From Phage NC-B: DNA of 64,000 nucleotides. The stretch lies in the sequence record MK310183; one strand, written 5' to 3'. The notes beneath the pieces are model-generated. The model was not told the origin of the DNA, made no database searches, and worked only from the letters and a program-made list of their open reading frames with translations. The translations under genes and the position numbers were made by a program. Positions 12,968-63,992 of the stretch are shown here, piece by piece. Numbering within the stretch: the first letter of the stretch is position 1; every line of letters begins with the position of its first letter.

Positions 12968-15199
12968 ATGTCTAGAGAGTTAATGCCCAAATCTGGGATA
13001 ATGATGCCTCACGTGGTAGTTACTAGAGATGCCGCAGTAGTGGGTGTATCTACTGTAGATGGGGCCGCTGGTGCTATCAACTTAACAGAAAAATACCTTC
13101 AGAAGTCTGACGCTGAAGCAACCTATCAAACGAAAGCAGAAGGGGCTACTAAGCAATATGTAACCGACGCTATCAACCCCATTATGACAAATGCTCTTTT
13201 TAAAGATGACCCCTTTGTTAATAATGACACACCTATTCGCTCTGGCGGTGGTAATGGTGTTGAATCGGTAGATATGATTAAAGTCACCCCTGAGAACACC
13301 ATCAAACTAGGGAGCTATGCTTCTTCTGTTCAGGGGGTTGAGATTCATTCTGCTGGTCGTCTTCAGGTTGTTGATCAGAACGATTCTGGAGTCGAAACTA
13401 AATATCCGGTATACTCCAAAAGATATCGCCCAGAAGTTGAGGATTTACCTTTCGCTTCAATTGGCTCCTATGTTAAAGACTCCAAAGGACGCACTATTGG
13501 TGTAACTCGTACTGGTATCAACTCTGATATCAAACAGCTCACACAGAAAGTTACTTTCACTCAACCAGTAACTGTCCCTGATGCAGTTGGTGATTATGAT
13601 GCGGTTACTTTGAGACAGCTTCGAAACAGTGGTGGCGGTTCTGGTGGTCCTACCATGAGCGGTATCTCTAACTTCGGAATTGGCGACTTTCATTTACGTG
13701 ACAGCCGTGCTTTCATCCCAGCTTTTGAGGTAGTGTCTGATGGGCAGCTTTTGAATCGTGCTGACTACCCAGATTTATGGGCTTATGCACAACTGCTATC
13801 TCCAATCGAAGACTCTCTTTGGTTGAGCGATTGGTCGCAGCGAGGTAGATATTCCAAAGGAGACGGAACAACAACTTTCCGTGTTCCCGATAGGAACGGG
13901 GTTCAGAGTGGTTCTATTAAGTCTTTATTTGCTAGAGGTGACGGTGGCAACTCAGCTAACAACGGAGAGGTTAGACAATCTTCCATTCCTAATATTACTG
14001 GTAAGATTGGTTTTCATGGAAGTGGTGGTGATAACTCGGGTACAGTTTTGGCGAATGGTAGCGGTGCTTTTTCAGTGTCTCAGACAATACCTAGATATTT
14101 AAGCGGTGCAACAATAGTAGCCGCTGGGGCTAGTTCATACGGAGAAGCTAACCTTAATGCGTCTACTGTTAACCCTGTTTATGGTAGGTATCCTGAACTG
14201 GCTGATGAAGTCTTACCTCGCAATTTTACAGGTGTCTGGACTATTCGAGCACACGGTGGATTTACTGCTGCTAACACTTCTTGGTCTGTTATTAACAGTG
14301 ATGCTACAGTGACACCTGACGTGTATGCGAAAGGTGGTTTAATATCATCTGAATATAAAGTATCAGGGGTTGTTAGAGGGTCTGCTACTTTCCAATCGTC
14401 ATACAGGTTAATGAATGATGGAAAGTCTGAAGCATTTGGTGATATCGATGTTAAGACTTCCGAAGGTGGTCTTGGTCATTACTCTTTTAATGAAAAAGGA
14501 AGGCTACAGATAACTAACAGTGGTCCTGATGCTGCTGGTACTTCAGTTTCACTGAAGGGGGTTAATCGAGGCTGGAATGACATACAATTAGACCCCGGAT
14601 ACTCAAGAGAGACCACAGGAGGTGGGATTAACGTTATTAGTGATAATCAGGTTCGAGATAAAATCACAACTGGTATTAACATCTTCTCCTCAATAGACAC
14701 CGGATATCCTACCAAGACTGGTTTTGGGGCATACTCTCCTGGTTCAGATGATTTCGCCAAAGGTTTAATTTATGTCAGTGGGGATGGTGGATTTTTCTCT
14801 CGTTACTTCTTCGACCACTTTGGACAGATTAATGGTACAAATAGAGATGGTCAATTTAGTTATACGAAAAATGGACCATCAGACGAAAGAATAAAACGTG
14901 AGATTAGAGATATTTCCCCAGAGAAAGCCATTAGTGTTATTAAGGGTTTAAATTTCAAATCTTTTATATACACTAATGATGAACAAGAAAGAGTTCGCCG
15001 TGGGGTTATTGCCCAACAGGCAGAGAAAGTGGAACCTCTTTATGTTAAAACTCGAAAATACCCAGGAATGAAGGAAGGTGATCCAGAGATCGAGCAGAAA
15101 GAGCTAGACACTACTCCAATGCTTTTAGATACCATGCAGGTTGTTCAAGATCTGCTGAAGCGTATTGAAGTTCTAGAAGCGAAGTTAGCAGAGAAGTGA
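12968..15199 (+). CDS. tail fibre/tailspike with C-terminal intramolecular chaperone (peptidase S74-like) domain
   Basis: C-terminus PSDERIKREIRDISPEKAISVIKGL...RGVIAQQAEKVEPLY then coiled coil, matching auto-cleaving chaperone domains of phage fibres. Confidence 0.75.
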   Translation: MSRELMPKSGIMMPHVVVTRDAAVVGVSTVDGAAGAINLTEKYLQKSDAEATYQTKAEGATKQYVTDAINPIMTNALFKDDPFVNNDTPIRSGGGNGVESVDMIKVTPENTIKLGSYASSVQGVEIHSAGRLQVVDQNDSGVETKYPVYSKRYRPEVEDLPFASIGSYVKDSKGRTIGVTRTGINSDIKQLTQKVTFTQPVTVPDAVGDYDAVTLRQLRNSGGGSGGPTMSGISNFGIGDFHLRDSRAFIPAFEVVSDGQLLNRADYPDLWAYAQLLSPIEDSLWLSDWSQRGRYSKGDGTTTFRVPDRNGVQSGSIKSLFARGDGGNSANNGEVRQSSIPNITGKIGFHGSGGDNSGTVLANGSGAFSVSQTIPRYLSGATIVAAGASSYGEANLNASTVNPVYGRYPELADEVLPRNFTGVWTIRAHGGFTAANTSWSVINSDATVTPDVYAKGGLISSEYKVSGVVRGSATFQSSYRLMNDGKSEAFGDIDVKTSEGGLGHYSFNEKGRLQITNSGPDAAGTSVSLKGVNRGWNDIQLDPGYSRETTGGGINVISDNQVRDKITTGINIFSSIDTGYPTKTGFGAYSPGSDDFAKGLIYVSGDGGFFSRYFFDHFGQINGTNRDGQFSYTKNGPSDERIKREIRDISPEKAISVIKGLNFKSFIYTNDEQERVRRGVIAQQAEKVEPLYVKTRKYPGMKEGDPEIEQKELDTTPMLLDTMQVVQDLLKRIEVLEAKLAEK

Positions 15200-15288: not shown

Positions 15289-15507
15289 ATGAAAATGATG
15301 AAACAGGTAACTTATGGTCTAGCTTGCTTAGGGACAGGTTTTGTGATTTCCACAGCAGTACCTGTAAATGCAGTAGGCTCTCATTCTATTATAGAAGCTC
15401 CTGTAGAGAAGCTTAGTTCTCAATGTAAACAAAGGACCATTCAAAATAATTTGGTTGTTATTTGCCCAGACGCTCAATCTTCAGCTCTGAGAAAAATTCT
15501 TCCTTAA
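15289..15507 (+). CDS. small membrane/secreted protein, holin candidate
   Basis: 72 aa, N-terminal hydrophobic segment VTYGLACLGTGFVISTAVPV, strong AAAGGAG SD, immediately upstream of lysozyme. Confidence 0.35.
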   Translation: MKMMKQVTYGLACLGTGFVISTAVPVNAVGSHSIIEAPVEKLSSQCKQRTIQNNLVVICPDAQSSALRKILP

Positions 15508-15540: not shown

Positions 15541-16032
15541 ATGGACGCTATCGCATTGCCGCCTGTACAGATGAGCCTAAGTCCGGCTGGTATGGAGTTT
15601 ATCATGAAGCATGAAGGCATGAGAACTAAAGCCTATAAAGACTCCGCTGGAATCTGGACTATATGTGTAGGGGCTACGCGCGATATGAATGGGTATCCAG
15701 TAAGACAAGGATTAACGTATTCTATAGAGGATTGTCTAGCTCTGCTAGATAGAGACACACAAGACTCTGTTCGTGCTACTCAGAAAAACATAAGAGTTCC
15801 TATGCTAGCTCATGAATTTGATGCTGTCACTTCTTTCAACTTTAATGTTGGTGGTGGTGCTTTGTCAACTTCAAAACTTAGGAAAGTGATCAACGGAGAT
15901 GTGAAGGGTGATGTTTACTCAGAGTTCTTACGTTGGGATAAGATAACTGTTAAAGGTGTAAAACAGCAGAGTCCGGGGCTTCACAATCGTAGGGTTGCAG
16001 AAGCAGACCTATACACCACAGGAAAATATTAA
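15541..16032 (+). CDS. lysozyme (glycoside hydrolase family 24, T4-lysozyme-like), likely endolysin
   Basis: catalytic-region motif HEGMRTKAYKDSAGIWTICVGAT. Confidence 0.85.
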   Translation: MDAIALPPVQMSLSPAGMEFIMKHEGMRTKAYKDSAGIWTICVGATRDMNGYPVRQGLTYSIEDCLALLDRDTQDSVRATQKNIRVPMLAHEFDAVTSFNFNVGGGALSTSKLRKVINGDVKGDVYSEFLRWDKITVKGVKQQSPGLHNRRVAEADLYTTGKY

Positions 16033-34295: not shown

Positions 34296-34520
34296 TTAAA
34301 CTACACAGAATAAATACATTGCTGTATCAGGACAAGGGATGGCTGTCTGAATGCCACTTACTTTAATCCACATATCCTCTTCAGAGTCATAATAAGCCCA
34401 ATAGGACTGATCTCCATCTACAAAGAATTTAAAGGTTCGTCCCCAAACCTGATTATTGTATTCCCATACTGCATGAAGCTGAGTAACACCTTCTGGTATT
34501 GTAAGTTCCGCTCTGATCAT
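34296..34520 (-). CDS. hypothetical protein
   Basis: 74 aa ORF; start overlaps upstream stop (ATGA). Confidence 0.45.
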   Translation of the reverse strand: MIRAELTIPEGVTQLHAVWEYNNQVWGRTFKFFVDGDQSYWAYYDSEEDMWIKVSGIQTAIPCPDTAMYLFCVV

Positions 34521-34777
34521 TGTATTCCTCTCTCCTTGAGAGCTTTAAGCAAACCGTTGTGGTTAGCGGCACAGGTTGTATAATTGTCCTGATACCACTC
34601 GAGTGTTGTTGCAAGTGCTACTCCCTGTCCACTCTGAAGTAAAGGGAGGTCTACATCACATTCAGCTTTTAGGTTTGTTGGTAAGGGCATTAGCTGCCTG
34701 CTGTTGTCGCTCGTTGAACAAGCTGACATACTCATCACTAGCACACACATTGTAAAAAACTGGCTTAGTCTTTTCAT
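34517..34777 (-). CDS. o-spanin (Rz1-like outer-membrane lipoprotein)
   Basis: signal peptide with lipobox ...VMSMSAC; Pro-rich mature part; gene overlaps i-spanin 3' end in another frame. Confidence 0.6.
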   Translation of the reverse strand: MKRLSQFFTMCVLVMSMSACSTSDNSRQLMPLPTNLKAECDVDLPLLQSGQGVALATTLEWYQDNYTTCAANHNGLLKALKERGIQ

Positions 34778-35009
34778 AATGCATCTCTTTGTAAATAGTT
34801 TCCGTGTTCTTCTTCCAGTTTGATAAACCAGTCAGAACTTTCTGAGCCACTTCATCAGCAGCCTTAGCTCTCTCAATCTCAATCTCTTGCTGTTTCTTCT
34901 CTTGGTCAAGAGCATTGCTGTCATTTCGATATTGCTCAAACTTGACACCACCAAAGAAAATCAGAGCTGTGAAGATTAAAAAACCTATATTGTTTTGAAG
35001 CTTTTCCAT
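34662..35009 (-). CDS. i-spanin (Rz-like)
   Basis: N-terminal TM (IGFLIFTALIFFGG) then coiled-coil periplasmic domain; start set to ATG 35009 (GGAG SD) because GTG 35033 lies inside the upstream terminator. Confidence 0.6.
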   Translation of the reverse strand: MEKLQNNIGFLIFTALIFFGGVKFEQYRNDSNALDQEKKQQEIEIERAKAADEVAQKVLTGLSNWKKNTETIYKEMHYEKTKPVFYNVCASDEYVSLFNERQQQAANALTNKPKS

Positions 35010-35021
35010 TTTAACTCCAAC

Positions 35022-35049
35022 GAAAAAAGCCACCCGAAGGTGGCTAAGC
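35022..35049 (-). terminator. rho-independent terminator
   Basis: minus-strand AGCCACC-UUCG-GGUGGCU then UUUUUUCG. Confidence 0.75.
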
Positions 35050-37536: not shown

Positions 37537-37669
37537 AATATCCAGAGTTGTAGTTTAGGGCGCATTTCTCGGCCTCTTCTATGTTGTCTGTGTTTAGGAT
37601 ATTAACCCAACCACCAACTTCATCAAAACCCTCTTCTTCTTCATTAAACCATACGCTGTATTTCTTCAT
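37490..37669 (-). CDS. small acidic protein (paralog of 36755..36922)
   Basis: start set to ATG 37669 (MKKYSVWF...). Confidence 0.45.
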   Translation of the reverse strand: MKKYSVWFNEEEEGFDEVGGWVNILNTDNIEEAEKCALNYNSGYYERNWEHDEILQSSL

Positions 37670-37841
37670 CTTGATAAGACTCTCCCCCAATCCTTGATGT
37701 AACAGCGACCGTCAACCCACTTGGTCTCTGATTTAAACTCTTTTGAGATTCGAGTCTCGCAATCTTCTTTACTGTAATCTCCAAGAGCATCCATCGCCCA
37801 AAGAAACAGAGCAATTACAATAGACCAGATTAGAAACTTCT

Positions 37842-38234
37842 TCATCGTATCACCAGAGGCTCTTCAGAGTATACAGGAGAGGCTATTTCTACCGGAGGTG
37901 CTGCTCTAAGGTCATTAAGCCTTACGCCCTTCAGCATACCATCTAGGTGGTCCATTTTAGGGATACCTACAGGGAAGTCATCAATCCAAACATCCACAAA
38001 GAAACCCAAGCTCTGGGTGACGGAATCCTTCTGAACACCGTTGCAAAAGATAACAGGAATATCTAGACTTGCTGCATCTGCTAGAAGCTCCTCATTTGAA
38101 TACCCATTGGGTTGAGCAAAACGATAGGTGACAATACGTACATCATGTCCACGAGATTTCATAAGACCTACAATGTGGGTCCACATCTCTTTGTCCACTG
38201 TAAAAGTATCATCATAATCTAAACCAATATTCAT
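37842..38234 (-). CDS. HAD-superfamily phosphatase (putative nucleotidase)
   Basis: N-terminal MNIGLDYDDTFT contains the DxDxT motif. Confidence 0.55.
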   Translation of the reverse strand: MNIGLDYDDTFTVDKEMWTHIVGLMKSRGHDVRIVTYRFAQPNGYSNEELLADAASLDIPVIFCNGVQKDSVTQSLGFFVDVWIDDFPVGIPKMDHLDGMLKGVRLNDLRAAPPVEIASPVYSEEPLVIR

Positions 38235-43466: not shown

Positions 43467-43775
43467 TTAGATAACCTTGTGCTCGTAGATGCTGGGGTTG
43501 AAATAATGCAACCAGTTTATATATTGTTTCTGTTCAAGGTAGTGTCTGCAATCATGACAAAAAGCATGACCCAAACCTGTTTCCTCGTTCAGCTTGAAGT
43601 TGATAAGAAGCTTCTGCTTTTGACAGAAGCTACATGCTTTAGTGGGCTTCACGTAGTGCATCCCATGAGATTGGGAAAAGTTTACGAAGCTCTTCATCAA
43701 CAGTTGATGCGAACACTCGTACTTCATACTGAGCATGGTCTGACAGCCGCTGACGACATAACTCTGACCAACCAT
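43467..43775 (-). CDS. hypothetical Zn-ribbon protein (start uncertain)
   Basis: Cys pairs CSFC...CHDC; 5' part overlaps the 3' end of thyX, true start probably internal (ATG at 43697 or 43661). Confidence 0.4.
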   Translation of the reverse strand: MVGQSYVVSGCQTMLSMKYECSHQLLMKSFVNFSQSHGMHYVKPTKACSFCQKQKLLINFKLNEETGLGHAFCHDCRHYLEQKQYINWLHYFNPSIYEHKVI

Positions 43776-44289
43776 ACAAAGAGCCTGTCCACACCCATTC
43801 AGTGATCATGCCCTGAGGCAATACAAATCGAGCTTGCTCTGGAGCAATAAACTTAATTAATTCATCATACGACTCAAGAGCTGTTTCATATGCCCGATTA
43901 ATCAGAACTAGTGCAGAGTTTTGTGCTCCTGTGGTGAGGAGATTCCCCGCACCTGCATGGAGGTCCGAAGGTCTTTCAAAAATCTCTTTAGGGATGAAGA
44001 GTTCAACTGCTCCATCTTTATACCGCCGGGACATTTCGTTCCACGAGAATCCAACTTGATGCTTGCCCAGCTGTCTCGCAATTGCGATTGGCGCTTTGCA
44101 TCGGAAGCTAATTGTCGGATGACGGAATGGTGTGACATGCTTTTCTCTGGCAAGGAACTTGATAAGGCGTTCATCTCGTTCATTTAACTCTCCTTCACGA
44201 GTAACCCCAAAAGAAACTCGAGCTGCATTAACAACAGATTTATCAGAACCCATTGCTTCGATTAGTGTTGCTTGTAATTGTTCATTCAT
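43639..44289 (-). CDS. thyX: flavin-dependent thymidylate synthase ThyX-like (divergent)
   Basis: AARVSFG..., HVTPFRHP, RLSDHAQYEV match ThyX; canonical RHR motif replaced by KHQ (LGKHQVGFSWNEMSRRY). Confidence 0.75.
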   Translation of the reverse strand: MNEQLQATLIEAMGSDKSVVNAARVSFGVTREGELNERDERLIKFLAREKHVTPFRHPTISFRCKAPIAIARQLGKHQVGFSWNEMSRRYKDGAVELFIPKEIFERPSDLHAGAGNLLTTGAQNSALVLINRAYETALESYDELIKFIAPEQARFVLPQGMITEWVWTGSLYGWSELCRQRLSDHAQYEVRVFASTVDEELRKLFPISWDALREAH

Positions 44290-44303
44290 CCTTGAACTCT
44301 TCC

Positions 44304-44519
44304 TTAATAATGAATCTTTTTATAAACCATATTGCTTCCGCCTTCTGTTTCAATCCCTTTCTGAATTGTAATCTTAGAAGCGCCAGTGTTAGCAATTTTC
44401 AAAGCTCGCTTAAATCTGCGAGCCTCTTTCCGTGTGGAGTATGTTGAGAAGCTAGGGATTGTACTATCAAAATTAAACCACTTAACTACCCAAAAAGTAA
44501 TCCAAGGTTTCTTTGCCAT
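44304..44519 (-). CDS. small basic protein, TRKEAR-motif family (paralog 3)
   Basis: 71 aa; shares W.V..W...F.TRKEAR..K and C-terminal Tyr with 46386..46598 and 46598..46813. Confidence 0.5.
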   Translation of the reverse strand: MAKKPWITFWVVKWFNFDSTIPSFSTYSTRKEARRFKRALKIANTGASKITIQKGIETEGGSNMVYKKIHY

Positions 44520-44520
44520 A

Positions 44521-44796
44521 TTACTTACCTTTCAGAGCCGTGTCTAAAAATGCACGGAGATTAGATTCAGTTTGCATACCTGACAAGCTGTAGTGAGCAC
44601 CACTATTCTTATCAGGGACTACAAAGGCTGGGATACTGCGAACACCGTATTCAATAGCTCGCTCTCGACCATCACCTTCAGAGATGTTTACCTCTTCAAC
44701 TTCAACGTTGTAATCAGCCACAACCTTCTTAAACACAGGAGCCATAGCTGCACACGGAGCACATGAATTACTATAAAACTTAATTACTTTACTCAT
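44521..44796 (-). CDS. thioredoxin-like protein
   Basis: VIKFYSNSCAPCAAMAP (CxxC), YGVRSIPAFVV, NLRAFLDTAL; start set to ATG 44796 (AAGGA SD). Confidence 0.7.
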   Translation of the reverse strand: MSKVIKFYSNSCAPCAAMAPVFKKVVADYNVEVEEVNISEGDGRERAIEYGVRSIPAFVVPDKNSGAHYSLSGMQTESNLRAFLDTALKGK

Positions 44797-44986
44797 TCTA
44801 TTCCTTGTTAATAAACAGGTTGATATGACGCTGGGTAGCAGGAACAACAATAAAAGATTTATACTGACCTTTTGCTAAGTCATGAGCAATCTTCTTTGTC
44901 TGACCAAGACCCATCACACAGCCACTAACGATAATGGCATGTGCTTGTAATTCTTCAGGTAGGTTTAGTTTCACTCTTTGGATTCC

Positions 44987-45172
44987 TTATAGCATACAAA
45001 GAATAATAACAAGAGGTAGTGTTATAGCAAAATGTACCAGAACAACACTACCTAGCTTGATAGCTTTAACATCCTCTTCTGCTGGGTTTTCTTTAATTGC
45101 TAAATTTCGAGCTTTATATATAACAGTACCAACTATTAACGACCACACGGCCCACACAATCAGTGAAATCAT
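44987..45172 (-). CDS. small two-TM membrane protein (paralog 1)
   Basis: MISLIVWAVWSLIVGTVIY...KENP...LGSVVLVHFAITLPLVIIL. Confidence 0.5.
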   Translation of the reverse strand: MISLIVWAVWSLIVGTVIYKARNLAIKENPAEEDVKAIKLGSVVLVHFAITLPLVIILCML

Positions 45173-45181
45173 GTCAAACCC

Positions 45182-45361
45182 TTATGCAGTCAACAGGTGG
45201 AGAAGGAAAGGAATGACAACAGAGAAAACTACCAGAGCAATGCTACCATGTTTAATAGGTTTGGCATCATTTGGATTTTCTTTAAGCATCTGTTTCTGAG
45301 CCAGATAAACGATACCACCAACAAGAATTGCCCATACAGACCACACGATTGCTGAAAACAT
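45182..45361 (-). CDS. small two-TM membrane protein (paralog 2)
   Basis: MFSAIVWSVWAILVGGIVY...KENP...HGSIALVVFSVVIPFLLHL; start set to ATG 45361. Confidence 0.5.
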   Translation of the reverse strand: MFSAIVWSVWAILVGGIVYLAQKQMLKENPNDAKPIKHGSIALVVFSVVIPFLLHLLTA

Positions 45362-45424
45362 ATTCATATCCTTATAAAGAAGTTCGCCCCACCTCTTAAA
45401 CAAAGAGACAGGGCGGAGGTTTGA

Positions 45425-46000
45425 TTAGTAAGACACGTCACCACTGGAGTGGGACATGTTGCTCTTGACGAAGTAACAGAACTTGCCAAGACCTTCATTA
45501 ATTTCTTGAAGCATACTCTGATCAACTGGATAGGTGCACAAGTCTGAATCAAACTCGTCCATCTTCTCAATGATACACATAAGAGTCATGCACATGTCGG
45601 AAAGCATACCGTCCATGTCGAGATCAGCGTTACCTTCTCGGAACCAAGCATGACCTAAATAGTTACTAGCAGTAGCATCCACTTTAACACAGTGAAAGCG
45701 CATACGCTCTGCTATTCGGTCGCCTGCCTCACGAGCATAATCTTCTAGTTCATCGAACATACCATGAACACCTTGGAAACCAGCTCCAGAGACGTTCCAG
45801 TGGTAGTTCTTTGCTTTGATGTGTAGAAGTTCAAGGTTAGCTTGCACACCACACAAGATGTGTTCTAAGCTGTTACCACTAATCAGTTTATTCATTCCCT
45901 CAAGACGAGAAATAGAAGAGTCAGTAGTAGAGAATGGGTTGCTAGGACCCACTCTTGTTAGCTCTGGTAAATCGAAGACATTATTATGCATTAGGTGCAT
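45425..46000 (-). CDS. dps: Dps-like ferritin-fold protein
   Basis: LELLHIKAKNYHWNVSGAGFQGVHGMFDELEDYAREAGDRIAERMR closely matches the Dps ferroxidase-centre region (H, H, D, E positions conserved). Confidence 0.8.
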   Translation of the reverse strand: MHLMHNNVFDLPELTRVGPSNPFSTTDSSISRLEGMNKLISGNSLEHILCGVQANLELLHIKAKNYHWNVSGAGFQGVHGMFDELEDYAREAGDRIAERMRFHCVKVDATASNYLGHAWFREGNADLDMDGMLSDMCMTLMCIIEKMDEFDSDLCTYPVDQSMLQEINEGLGKFCYFVKSNMSHSSGDVSY

Positions 46001-46313
46001 CCCCTTCTAAGTTAGTTGAATTAGCTACATTACGAGCAATGTTATCCATGACCTGCTGTGTGATAACAATGCAATTCTGAGGGTCTACTGATTTAGAACG
46101 CCCCATTTCAGGGTCATAGACTTTGACTCGCTTGGCTGTTGAGCCAGTAACTTGCAACACTTTGAGAAGATAACCTTGATTTCCAATAGACCATGCAACA
46201 ACATCACGATTCTTGATATAACGACCAAGCATATCCCGATGATAGAACTGCTGCATAACTTTAGCTTTGCTAATCTCTTCAGATGGCGGAGCCACTTTAC
46301 TCAAATCTAACAT
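45984..46313 (-). CDS. hypothetical protein
   Basis: 109 aa ORF. Confidence 0.5.
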   Translation of the reverse strand: MLDLSKVAPPSEEISKAKVMQQFYHRDMLGRYIKNRDVVAWSIGNQGYLLKVLQVTGSTAKRVKVYDPEMGRSKSVDPQNCIVITQQVMDNIARNVANSTNLEGDAPNA

Positions 46314-46385
46314 TTCACTCTCTCCTGTTTAACACAATATTCTTATACTGTATATACATTTGAGAGTGATCATATCTACTACCAA

Positions 46386-46598
46386 TCAGTAGTAAACATA
46401 TCCAGAGATATATGAGCCTTTATCCCCACTAAACTCAAACCATCGATGCATGTCAGCACGTTTAACCGTACCGACTAGAGCTTTCATATTCTTCTTAGCA
46501 ATACGAGCCTCTTTACGAGTGTTAAACAGTTTGATACTATCTTTACCTAGATGGACACCATCTTCCCAAACAACACGAACAGCCCACATCTTTTTCAT
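46386..46598 (-). CDS. small basic protein, TRKEAR-motif family (paralog 2)
   Basis: MKKMWAVRVVWEDG...FNTRKEARIAKK...SGYVYY. Confidence 0.5.
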   Translation of the reverse strand: MKKMWAVRVVWEDGVHLGKDSIKLFNTRKEARIAKKNMKALVGTVKRADMHRWFEFSGDKGSYISGYVYY

Positions 46599-46813
46599 TA
46601 GTAATGTACCTTTCCGCTGATATAAATACGGCCTGAGGTATACTCATAGCCCTTGAGAATCTTAACAGAGATAAGATATCCAGTGTGTAATTCACTGAAT
46701 GATTTCTTAAGCCTACGTGCATCTTCTCGTGTTTTCTGGTAGGTCATGGTCACACCCCCACTTGTCCACTCTGTCTTAACTAACCAAATTCTTTTCATAA
46801 GACCTGCTCTCAT
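46598..46813 (-). CDS. small basic protein, TRKEAR-motif family (paralog 1)
   Basis: ...WLVKTEW...YQKTREDARRLKK...SGKVHY; stop/start overlap with paralog 2. Confidence 0.5.
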   Translation of the reverse strand: MRAGLMKRIWLVKTEWTSGGVTMTYQKTREDARRLKKSFSELHTGYLISVKILKGYEYTSGRIYISGKVHY

Positions 46814-47347
46814 TTAGACACCCTTAGAAGCAACTACACCTTCGCTACCATTATAGCGACCCTTAACTGCATAGGAATGTTCACCAGCATGTGAATGCTC
46901 AAACATCACCATCTGACCAACACGCATACCAGCACGAACTCGTAAGCTGTGGTGCTTGGTTACGTTATGAAATTCGAATGTCAGCTTGCTGTTGTTAAAC
47001 CCAGCGTCTGCCCAACCAGCATGTAAATGGTTCAGGCCACAACGAGCCATCGAAGATCGCAAAACAAACAAACTGGAGATGTTATCTGGAAGGTTGAACT
47101 CTTCCATTGAGTGAGCCAAGAAGAATTGTCCCGGAGTGATGATAATACCATCTTCAGGGATTTTTACTTCTTTCCACTTGAGGTTTTCTTTAGCATCAAT
47201 GTCAACAATACCATCAGCCTGTTCTTCAACAAGGATAGTATCACCAATGCGGATATCCACGCTAGCAGCGTTAACATATTTATGCTCCGCATCTAAAAAG
47301 CCATTATCAATAACGCTGTGTAATTCTTGAGAACCTAAAAGACTCAT
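46814..47347 (-). CDS. dcd: dCTP deaminase (Dcd/dUTPase superfamily)
   Basis: AASVDIRIGD, RSSMARCGLNHLHAGWADAGF, LRVRAGMRVGQMVMFE match Dcd. Confidence 0.8.
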   Translation of the reverse strand: MSLLGSQELHSVIDNGFLDAEHKYVNAASVDIRIGDTILVEEQADGIVDIDAKENLKWKEVKIPEDGIIITPGQFFLAHSMEEFNLPDNISSLFVLRSSMARCGLNHLHAGWADAGFNNSKLTFEFHNVTKHHSLRVRAGMRVGQMVMFEHSHAGEHSYAVKGRYNGSEGVVASKGV

Positions 47348-48789
47348 GAGTTTCTGTTTCCTTGTACGGATGATGCCAAATTATTAATCATGTTGCGAGC
47401 TGTTTCACGAGATAGTGTAACACCTGCTAAGTTGTTACGAAGCTCACCAGATAGTTCACGAGCAGTAGCTCGAAGTTCTGCACCAAGTGCAGTGTCAGAG
47501 TGAGCCAGACCGTTACGACGACCAACAGGTCGAGGAGCTTCGTTAGCGTCATTAGCTAATGATGCAAAACCAATATGAGCAGCTTCACGAGCCGCTATAG
47601 CTGATACTCGATCTTCTGTAGGGGTTGGTAAATCACCAACGTCTACACGTTCGATATCACTAGCACGAATTCCACCAACAACAGATCTTACTGTTTCCCA
47701 TGAACGACGAGAACGCTGCAAATCATCCATTGATGGAGAAGAAACAGGACGAGCAGTTCCCCCTGAGACATGCCATGTATGGTTGTGGGTGTCCGTCCCG
47801 GAAGAGCGTGAACTAACACGTAAGTCACCGGTAAAAGTTTCACGAGGTGCCACTGTAGAAGGAGCTGCGAATCTTGCCTGTTGCCAAGAATCACGTCTGT
47901 TGGTTCCCGGAGTCCAAGGCTGCGTGATTGCTTCAGCACCTATAGTGGTTAATCCGCTAGACCATTCTGTCTGTAGATTAACTTCCTCGTCCAGATAACT
48001 ACGACCCCTTTCCTGAGGAATGTTTAATATAGTTTCCATCATCTTCAGGGTATAATGACGACGCTGATTCTGATATAAATTTACACCAGCCATAGGTCCA
48101 ACTAAATCACTAATCAGGTGAACTTCTGGCTCACCGAAAGCTCCCATTGCAAGGTGCATATATTCAGTAGAACTGCTATAAACTGCAACAGTTGCTTCAG
48201 GCCACTTCTTGTGAACATACTTCATTTCACGACTAGATACCACAGGAATGTCACGAGTGTATGACATTGCAAACAAACCTTCGTTTGACACATACAGATT
48301 ACCAAGAGTCATAAACCCTTGACAGATCATAGGGAAGCGACGGCTTAAAGTGTCCATATCCAAAGGTAGATTAATCATCATCTGGATTTTAACTTGATCA
48401 ATCTCAATTTCCAGAATCTCTTGGAAAGTGAAAAGCGCTTCAGCATAAGTTGTCCCGTTAACAGGTTGAACTAGTCGAGATGTTACTTGAAGTCCCTTAC
48501 TCTCTGTCCAAGACAAGAAGTTGTCGAGGAACAGTGCAGCATTGCCTACGTTAGCAGGGCTATTTTCCTGACGAGTGTTCCAACGAAGACCGCCTTGAAC
48601 TAGGAAGATATCAACATCATTCGGAGTTCTATTTTGGAAGAACGTATCACGGATAGCACCACCTGCAATAACAGGATAGATGCCATCAGGGACTACGTTA
48701 TCTCTGATCAAATTACGAATCAGGTCAAGCCCTACACTGAGGGCTTCTCCTTCTTGAAGGTTCAATTCAGACAATGGAATCTTAATCAT
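47344..48789 (-). CDS. nucleotidyltransferase (CCA-adding / poly(A) polymerase head-domain type) with disordered Arg/Ser-rich C-terminal half
   Basis: VIAGGAIRDTFFQNRTPNDVDIFLV matches the GGxxRD...DxD head-domain signature; C-terminal about 230 aa are R/S/T/A/G-rich low complexity. Confidence 0.6.
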   Translation of the reverse strand: MIKIPLSELNLQEGEALSVGLDLIRNLIRDNVVPDGIYPVIAGGAIRDTFFQNRTPNDVDIFLVQGGLRWNTRQENSPANVGNAALFLDNFLSWTESKGLQVTSRLVQPVNGTTYAEALFTFQEILEIEIDQVKIQMMINLPLDMDTLSRRFPMICQGFMTLGNLYVSNEGLFAMSYTRDIPVVSSREMKYVHKKWPEATVAVYSSSTEYMHLAMGAFGEPEVHLISDLVGPMAGVNLYQNQRRHYTLKMMETILNIPQERGRSYLDEEVNLQTEWSSGLTTIGAEAITQPWTPGTNRRDSWQQARFAAPSTVAPRETFTGDLRVSSRSSGTDTHNHTWHVSGGTARPVSSPSMDDLQRSRRSWETVRSVVGGIRASDIERVDVGDLPTPTEDRVSAIAAREAAHIGFASLANDANEAPRPVGRRNGLAHSDTALGAELRATARELSGELRNNLAGVTLSRETARNMINNLASSVQGNRNS

Positions 48790-52224: not shown

Positions 52225-52422
52225 TTACCTTTTGTTTAAAATTTCTTTTGTACAAGAAGTCCCGTTACACACGAGAACTGTTTGAGTTATAGAATCGACA
52301 ACTGTTACATGGCTGCCGCATTGAGTTATGATTTGACCTCTCCCTGAATCTTTAGAGATGCATTCATCAGCGGCGATTGCTGACACACTGAATAAGGAGA
52401 GGAAAAATAGAATCTTTTTCAT
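52225..52422 (-). CDS. small secreted Cys-containing protein
   Basis: signal peptide MKKILFFLSLFSVSAIAADE; 5 Cys in mature part. Confidence 0.45.
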   Translation of the reverse strand: MKKILFFLSLFSVSAIAADECISKDSGRGQIITQCGSHVTVVDSITQTVLVCNGTSCTKEILNKR

Positions 52423-61868: not shown

Positions 61869-62231
61869 TTACTCTGATACCAGAAGGCCCAGAGATTTGC
61901 GAATGTAGTCAATACTACGGAAGTTTCGATAGTTCTCTTGGAAGCGCATCTTTTCAAACTCTGCTTCCTGAAGCTCTACCTCTGCTGCTTTATATCCCGA
62001 TAAAGCTAAACTCACCACATCCTGAGGCAAGACATTACGACGACGAATAAGATATTTATTCGCTTTTAATTTACCTTGTGCACGAGCCATTTTGGCCTTT
62101 GCCGCCTTGATTCCATGAGAAATCCAAAGCAGTTGCTGCTTCAGGTCTTCCTCGTCCATACCACCTAAATCGTTTGCTACTTTATGCAGCGTAGACAGGT
62201 TTACATGGCCTTTAATGGGGCGTAGGTTCAT
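61869..62231 (-). CDS. hypothetical protein
   Basis: 120 aa basic helical ORF. Confidence 0.5.
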   Translation of the reverse strand: MNLRPIKGHVNLSTLHKVANDLGGMDEEDLKQQLLWISHGIKAAKAKMARAQGKLKANKYLIRRRNVLPQDVVSLALSGYKAAEVELQEAEFEKMRFQENYRNFRSIDYIRKSLGLLVSE

Positions 62232-62395
62232 AACTTCTCCTGTTTGTCACATTGATTGGTTAGCCAGTTGTAAGACCCTCTGTTATTCTTGCTTAACTCA
62301 CAAGATACAAAGGAAGTCACACGGGCAAACCCCACAGTGGCTAAGCAAATAAAGATTGCTGCCAATAAGAATTTAGCTTTCAACTTATTATCCAT
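62228..62395 (-). CDS. hypothetical small secreted/membrane protein (55 aa), not in ORF track
   Basis: MDNKLKAKFLLAAIFICLATVGFA signal-like N-terminus; AGAGG SD; stop TGA overlaps next ATG (ATGA). Confidence 0.35.
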   Translation of the reverse strand: MDNKLKAKFLLAAIFICLATVGFARVTSFVSCELSKNNRGSYNWLTNQCDKQEKL

Positions 62396-63761: not shown

Positions 63762-63992
63762 TCAATAGAAGGTGTGTGTAGAGTCATCGTTCATACATAA
63801 CCAAACGAAGAAGACAATCACACAGAAAGCAATAACACCGAGAATTGCAAGGATTATAGTGTTAGCTAATGTGATATCTAACACGCTTTGCAGATACATA
63901 AAGAACTGTACGACACCACATATCATTAGCACGACACCAACAACAATGAGGAGCCAATATGTGCAGAGAAGGGCTGCATCCAATAGTGACAC
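63762..63992 (-). CDS. small hydrophobic membrane protein (two predicted TM segments)
   Basis: 76 aa, LLCTYWLLIVVGVVLMICGVV and IILAILGVIAFCVIVFFVWL. Confidence 0.5.
   Translation of the reverse strand: MSLLDAALLCTYWLLIVVGVVLMICGVVQFFMYLQSVLDITLANTIILAILGVIAFCVIVFFVWLCMNDDSTHTFY

Follow-up and report, generated by a model that had tools for sequence, protein, structure and literature searches.

A tandem pair of paralogous, predicted two-helix membrane proteins restricted to Kuravirus-like coliphages

Two adjacent genes of phage NC-B, here called A and B, encode paralogous proteins of about 60 residues that are predicted to fold into membrane hairpins. Their sequences place both in an already catalogued, uncharacterised family, PHROG 9296, which appears to be restricted to Kuravirus-like (Gordonclarkvirinae) coliphages. 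They should not be labelled holins. By analogy with T4 Imm and HK97 gp15, we tentatively read them as superinfection-exclusion or membrane-conditioning factors, with a probability of about 0.3. In itself this is an ordinary pair of small orphan membrane proteins, of modest importance.

The window, the whole stretch of 64,000 nucleotides analysed here (sequence record MK310183), belongs by its nucleotide matches to a Kuravirus-like (phiEco32-like) podophage of E. coli. With identities of 80-95%, the 4 kb around A and B matched 98 phage records, nearly all of them from phages of Escherichia or Shigella that belong to Kuravirus and its relatives in Gordonclarkvirinae; among them are phiEco32, SU10, ECBP2, NJ01 and Bas86-93. 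AnnaHegner_Bas87 aligns with the window in long blocks that are 88-99% identical, mostly 96-99%. Late structural genes fill the plus strand as far as about 31 kb; the middle and early genes lie on the minus strand. The part most divergent from Bas87 is the tail-fibre region (about 8.6-14.9 kb), at 91-93% in blocks and with gaps (window 12968-15199, plus strand), consistent with exchange of a receptor-binding module.

Gene A (45182..45361, minus strand) encodes 59 aa, with the N-terminus MFSAIVWSVW and the loop motif LKENP. After a gap of 9 nt comes gene B (44987..45172, minus strand), whose 61 aa carry the corresponding motifs MISLIVWAVW and IKENP. Each is an open reading frame with a Shine-Dalgarno sequence 6-7 nt 5' of its ATG (AAGGAT-N6-ATG for A, AAGGG-N6-ATG for B). 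A is the positional orthologue of gp66 of phiEco32 and SU10, and B is a diverged paralogue of A. Both genes are annotated as coding sequences in relatives (Bas87_0062/0061; g067c/g066c in 4E8), and the A protein is 100% identical to Bas87_0062. The initial annotation, which had described two adjacent proteins of about 60 residues, was exact as to their coordinates.

It had also called them tandem paralogues, and this held up well. A shares 45% identity with B from end to end (BLASTP, E 2e-17), with a Smith-Waterman score of 139 against 25 +/- 4.7 for full shuffles. Because hydrophobic proteins can resemble each other by composition alone, we also made 2000 shuffles of B, each confined within TM1, the loop or TM2. 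These layout-keeping shuffles scored 34 +/- 8.8 on average and 77 at most, so that the real score stands above all of them (z = 12). The paralogy is far beyond chance. Among the PHROGs both proteins match only PHROG 9296, and that over their full length, A with E 3.5e-32 (residues 1-59 of 59) and B with E 2.3e-30 (residues 1-61). An HMM search against all 1251 stop-to-stop open reading frames of the window found no further paralogues.

Among A-type orthologues, in the fetched loci of other phages, dN/dS ranges from 0.04 to 0.39, and synonymous changes exceed non-synonymous ones in nearly all orthologue comparisons with enough substitutions to judge. Both genes are thus under purifying selection, and this synonymous excess marks them as genuine coding genes. 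Between A and B themselves, DNA similarity is down to one 62-nt patch of 69% identity; the duplication is therefore old. That A and B are spurious, hydrophobic frames that are never expressed is very hard to credit. Their short length and the lack of any experimental detection in the literature searched speak for it; the good Shine-Dalgarno sites, the synonymous excess, a paralogy kept in protein while the DNA decayed and the full-length family match all speak against it.

Each protein has two strongly hydrophobic segments, at residues 1-21 and about 40-59/61 (Kyte-Doolittle 19-residue means of 1.9-2.8). On the Hessa scale, simple sums for TM2 range from about 0 to -1.4 kcal/mol, and a hand sum for TM1 of A gives about +0.2. 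All lysines and arginines, three to five per protein, lie inside the loop of 18-20 residues, with none at either terminus. For A, AlphaFold2, run on a six-sequence family alignment, returned helices at 2-28 and 30-58 with a one-residue break at N29 and a mean pLDDT of 89.5. Hydropathy and the predicted hairpin therefore agree with the TM-loop-TM architecture proposed initially. A conserved KENP loop, proposed along with it, stands only in part: E28 and P30 are invariant, and the K and N vary, phiEco32 gp66 having EETP. In the model, the conserved E28-x-P30 would form the turn of the hairpin.

Sixteen positions are invariant across the three subtypes of the family: M1, S3, I5, V6, W7, W10, G15, Y19, A21, E28, P30, I36, S40, V44, P51 and L56. 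By helical periodicity, most of the invariant residues of each transmembrane helix appear to lie along one helix face. Between A and the gp66 type, 13 of 21 residues are identical in TM1 and 14 of 20 in TM2, against 3 of 18 in the loop. The helices are the conserved part and the loop a fast-evolving one, a pattern that fits recognition within the membrane. Under the positive-inside rule, a positively charged loop is expected on the cytoplasmic side. The lysine-rich loop is therefore predicted to be cytoplasmic and both termini periplasmic, and we infer insertion into the inner membrane with this N-out/C-out topology.

PHROG 9296 has no assigned function and includes phiEco32 gp66 (phi32_66), SU10 gp066 and NJ01_079/080. 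In a tblastn search of 50,697 phage records, the family was present in 97 records at 141 places, all Kuravirus-like, and the hosts of these phages are all E. coli or Shigella. The first-position gene is found in all 97 records and has two allelic types, which share about 50% identity: the A type in 23 records (at least 80% identity to A) and the phiEco32-gp66 type in the other 74 (about 51% identity to A). True B, again at an identity of at least 80%, occurs in 44 of the 97 and is absent from 53. B is found beside first genes of either type. A and B occur together in the window phage, Bas87, 4E8, ECBP2 and KBNP1711; gp66 is accompanied by B in NJ01 and O18-011. The gp66 type alone is carried by phiEco32, SU10, Paul and ShigP1, and A alone by E20-1, EK010 and MLP3. 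At the protein level, A is 51% and B 32% identical to gp66.

B is an optional cassette gene with clean boundaries. Relative to the window, phiEco32 lacks 45169-44792, a gene-precise indel that removes B together with ORF X (44798..44974, minus strand), which has a GTG start and encodes a soluble protein of 58 aa in PHROG 19504, likewise with no assigned function. E20-1 lacks 45181-44974, a gene-precise indel of B alone, and keeps X. B and X make up a cassette of 378 bp, missing from phiEco32, SU10, Paul and ShigP1. The B protein is 100% identical in 34 records, some with an A-type and others with a gp66-type first gene. Four fetched loci whose A genes differ by a dS of 0.07-0.3 have identical B DNA. 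Identical B genes beside diverged first genes indicate recent horizontal spread of the cassette.

Searches of larger collections added nothing outside this lineage. When 1.84 billion representatives were searched exhaustively with a profile, the only matches were the three family subtypes and two repetitive artefacts, and the family members came from kuravirus-like phages wherever the source was named. A word-indexed search of 5.8e9 clusters gave 4 close relatives and nothing beyond the family; IMG/VR gave only the genomes of ECBP2, KBNP1711 and NJ01. Neither A nor B matched Pfam-A or PADLOC at E <= 10, NCBIfam held no meaningful match, and a sequence profile search of the PDB found none (best E 0.66). 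Foldseek of the AlphaFold2 hairpin against BFVD gave significant scores only for family members, a 59-residue helical hairpin being non-discriminating as a fold-search query. In the Grimontviridae relatives taken as outgroup, the distant C3-morphotype phages SE131 (7-11-like), Privateer and ECO319P1, the thioredoxin/gp68/Dps block is kept and contains no transmembrane open reading frame.

In a row of genes that share one orientation, A and B take third and fourth place: a gene-68 homologue and a Dps/ferritin-like gene (45425-46000, minus strand; PF00210) come first, and A and B are followed by X, thioredoxin and further genes as far as ThyX. The orthologue in SU10 and phiEco32, CDS66, falls within CDS25-68, a block classed as middle (PMC4281155, text and Tables S1/S2); for gene 66, the temporal class is taken from secondary descriptions. 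SU10 has a sigma-70 and gp36-type middle promoter between CDS68 and CDS69 (PMC4281155, Table S2), and the gp36 middle/late promoter consensus of phiEco32 is tAATGTAtA (PMC8948821). A search of the window for the core of this consensus gave 8 matches where 2.7 were expected. One of them, AATGTATA at 46353..46360 (minus strand), lies upstream of the gene-68 homologue that opens the A/B operon, at the spot equivalent to the SU10 promoter. From this motif and from synteny with SU10 and phiEco32, we infer that A and B belong to a middle-class operon.

A hairpin at 45385..45415 (minus strand) separates the stop codon of the Dps-like gene from A. Its GC-rich stem of 13 bp has a folding energy of -18.6 kcal/mol (z = -2.9). 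The hairpin is conserved in other fetched kuravirus loci; O18-011 has another hairpin, with a T-tract, in its place. It is therefore a probable intrinsic terminator or attenuator, or else a 3'-end stabiliser, and it probably adjusts how strongly A and the genes downstream are expressed. The terminator list of SU10 does not include it (PMC4281155, Table S2), and no Rfam family was found in 43500-47500. Flanking A and B are three small paralogous open reading frames of about 70 aa (46386-46598, 46598-46813 and 44304-44519, all on the minus strand), 28-32% identical, which share the pattern W-x-V...TRKEAR-x-x-KK...Y-COOH and correspond to SU10 CDS69-72.

The initial annotation had likened the pair to class II holins and suggested a holin and its antiholin, at a distance from the lysozyme. 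The distance is real: the GH24 endolysin (15541-16029, plus strand; PF00959, E 5e-31) lies about 29 kb away on the opposite strand. The holin comparison fell on every hallmark that could be tested, namely the C-terminal tail, adjacency to the endolysin, operon class, dual start and family match. As a holin system, A or the gp66 type would form the hole for the soluble endolysin and B would regulate it, and the 72-aa protein encoded upstream of the endolysin would have another role. Small proteins with two predicted helices suit this, as do the small residues that form a stripe in TM1 (A4/S8/A11/G15). Read by eye, the endolysin has no evident N-terminal signal or SAR segment, so a real holin is probably needed. 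Against this, neither protein has a charged hydrophilic C-terminal domain: both stop inside TM2, A ending in PFLLHLLTA and B in LVIILCML, with no Lys, Arg, Asp or Glu after residue 37 (A) or 39 (B). Class II holins such as S21 have an N-in/C-in topology, opposite to the N-out/C-out predicted here. They have two transmembrane domains and 65-95 aa, many with dual starts (PMC3359269), and the 59 and 61 aa of A and B fall under that range. A candidate dual start of A (M-N-M) was rejected, since the upstream ATG-AAT-ATG is not conserved: relatives have GTG AAT ATG, ATG AGT ATG or ATA GAT ATA TG there. The upstream ATG would moreover add no charge, and it lies 1 nt from the Shine-Dalgarno site. Expression would by synteny be middle and not late; no holin or defence family matches (Pfam, PHROG, NCBIfam, PADLOC); and B, missing from 53 of 97 genomes, is dispensable, so the pair is not obligate.

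Published annotations put the holin beside the endolysin (PMC7881722, PMC9965538, PMC4281155). There, directly upstream, lies the 72-aa putative holin (15289-15504, plus strand; phiEco32 gp16, PHROG 11161), for which Pfam gives no holin match. Behind its MKMMK start lies a single weak hydrophobic stretch, rich in Gly, Ala and Thr (simple Hessa sum +4.6). The stretch is followed by V-N-A|V, resembling a signal peptide or SAR domain, and then by a polar C-terminal part of 43 residues with two Cys. By sequence, its holin label appears to be positional only. The lysis genes are also dispersed: the overlapping i-spanin (34662-35033) and o-spanin (34517-34777, with a lipobox-like MSAC), both on the minus strand and together spanning 34517-35033, belong to the cluster of middle genes and are remote from the endolysin. 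The Bas87 annotation gives the spanin as a joined coding sequence around an HNH endonuclease gene (locus L003 32940-33832); the window is without this insertion of about 0.5 kb (alignment break at L003 33001/33516). The positional label and the dispersed spanins keep a holin role for A and B above zero, as a quite improbable one. That they are the real kuravirus holins, acting from the middle operon, with the 72-aa protein as a secreted regulator, is the less likely alternative.

What fits best is phage-phage competition or membrane conditioning, since these are predicted membrane hairpins, made before the late phase, restricted to one lineage, present as allelic types with a mobile, optional paralogue, and conserved in their transmembrane helices. 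Superinfection exclusion, the second suggestion of the initial annotation, would be in keeping with all the observations here. In the mechanism we propose, A and B would each insert into the host inner membrane as a hairpin of about 60 residues with two transmembrane helices, the termini outside and the lysine-rich loop with its E-x-P turn in the cytoplasm. They would be transcribed with the middle operon from the gene-68 promoter and so be made well before lysis. The conserved helix faces would act within the membrane, binding the ejection-protein channel of a second, related phage and blocking its membrane insertion; the A, gp66-type and B variants may supply different or additive specificities. 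The podovirus target analogous to a tape-measure protein would be the ejection proteins, encoded at about 21.9-24.8 kb in the window. By prediction and synteny, A and B share with Imm the character of small inner-membrane proteins made before the late phase. Still, neither resembles Imm, gp15, SieA or any characterised protein in sequence or fold (Pfam, PHROG, NCBIfam, PADLOC, PDB, BFVD), and the predicted topology leaves almost nothing in the periplasm, so that any recognition would have to be intramembrane. The first gene is present in essentially all kuraviruses under purifying selection, which a housekeeping role in infection fits equally, and both genes may be expressed less because of the hairpin upstream of A. 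A search of the literature on the function, expression or phenotype of gp66 and on superinfection exclusion in Kuravirus turned up nothing relevant. It is a slightly more doubtful conjecture that A, B and the gp66 type form a new, minimal two-helix exclusion family of C3-morphotype podoviruses, blocking inner-membrane insertion of the ejection channel by intramembrane helix-helix contacts alone; which related phages are excluded would then depend on the allelic type and on the mobile B(+X) cassette.

The same hairpins could instead be turned on the host, a reading that we consider possible and hold with similar doubt. They would bind a host integral membrane protein by TM-TM contacts and change membrane physiology during replication, the candidate partners being a transporter, an envelope-synthesis or O-antigen enzyme, a protease or a division protein. 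Comparable cases are the small bacterial regulators AcrZ and MgtS and phage inhibitors of O-antigen polymerase. A middle-class position among host-takeover and metabolism genes would suit this role, as would a first-position gene universal in the group and under purifying selection, conservation seated in the helices, and hosts that are all E. coli or Shigella. On the other hand, no homology to any known modulator was found in the databases searched, and the presence or absence of B and the spread of its cassette look more like a competition gene. By sequence data alone, a host-directed regulator and an exclusion factor are inseparable. Improbable, by comparison, is a membrane anchor or organiser for the replication or nucleotide-metabolism machinery of the neighbours (Dps-like, thioredoxin, ThyX, dCTP deaminase), for which p16.7 of phi29 is a comparable case. 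In one operon, A and B do stand between the Dps-like and the thioredoxin gene, but the loop, the would-be docking surface, is the least conserved part and is only about 18 residues long. A functional tie to the Dps/thioredoxin block was rejected as well, the Grimontviridae outgroups keeping the block without the transmembrane gene. This absence and the poorly conserved loop make an anchor the less likely.

No part of phage genomes is less well understood than the small hydrophobic orphan proteins, and the window encodes others. Small open reading frames with strong hydrophobic segments lie at 63762-63992, 62228-62395, 52225-52422 and 37666-37845 (all on the minus strand) and by sequence would be further membrane or secreted phage proteins; among them, one in the early region is of 76 aa and multi-TM-looking, and several are signal-peptide-like, with Cys-rich mature parts. 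Kuraviruses are therapeutic coliphages, now in the BASEL collection. If exclusion were true, the A/gp66/B genotype would tell in advance which kuraviruses are compatible in a cocktail, and the family would serve as a minimal model of how a podovirus ejection channel can be blocked. The practical outcome is one of annotation: A and B are not to be called holins, the kuravirus holin rests on position, and the thioredoxin homologue of E20-1 (OP293233; locus L001 2691-2966) is wrongly labelled a holin. In many relatives' records the Dps/ferritin-like gene, too, is wrongly labelled, as an integrase.

Among known systems, the 72-aa putative holin of the same phage is also small, lineage-specific and membrane-targeted, but it has a single weak N-terminal segment, belongs to the late cluster and is unrelated to A and B in sequence. 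Class II holins and pinholins of the phage 21 S68 type likewise are small and combine two predicted helices with small-residue motifs; A and B are shorter, lack the charged C-terminal cytoplasmic tail and have the opposite predicted topology. The closest likeness is to gp66 and PHROG 9296, with which A and B have in common the position between the Dps-like and thioredoxin genes, the length and the full-length match; the C-terminal IPFLLHLLTA of phiEco32 gp66 is identical in A. The window differs from the gp66 phages in carrying an A-type first gene and the optional paralogue B. T4 imm sits among nucleotide-metabolism and replication genes, and the gene setting of A and B is similar. Imm, a membrane protein of 9.3 kDa whose N-terminus is periplasmic, stops genome translocation by binding the tape-measure protein at its pore-forming domain, HK97 gp15 being similar (bioRxiv 10.64898/2026.03.06.709160). 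Like these two, A and B would be small phage inner-membrane proteins made before the late phase. Imm, however, has 83 aa, a four-helix arrangement and a functional loop facing the periplasm, whereas A and B are predicted to be bare two-helix hairpins with essentially no periplasmic exposure.
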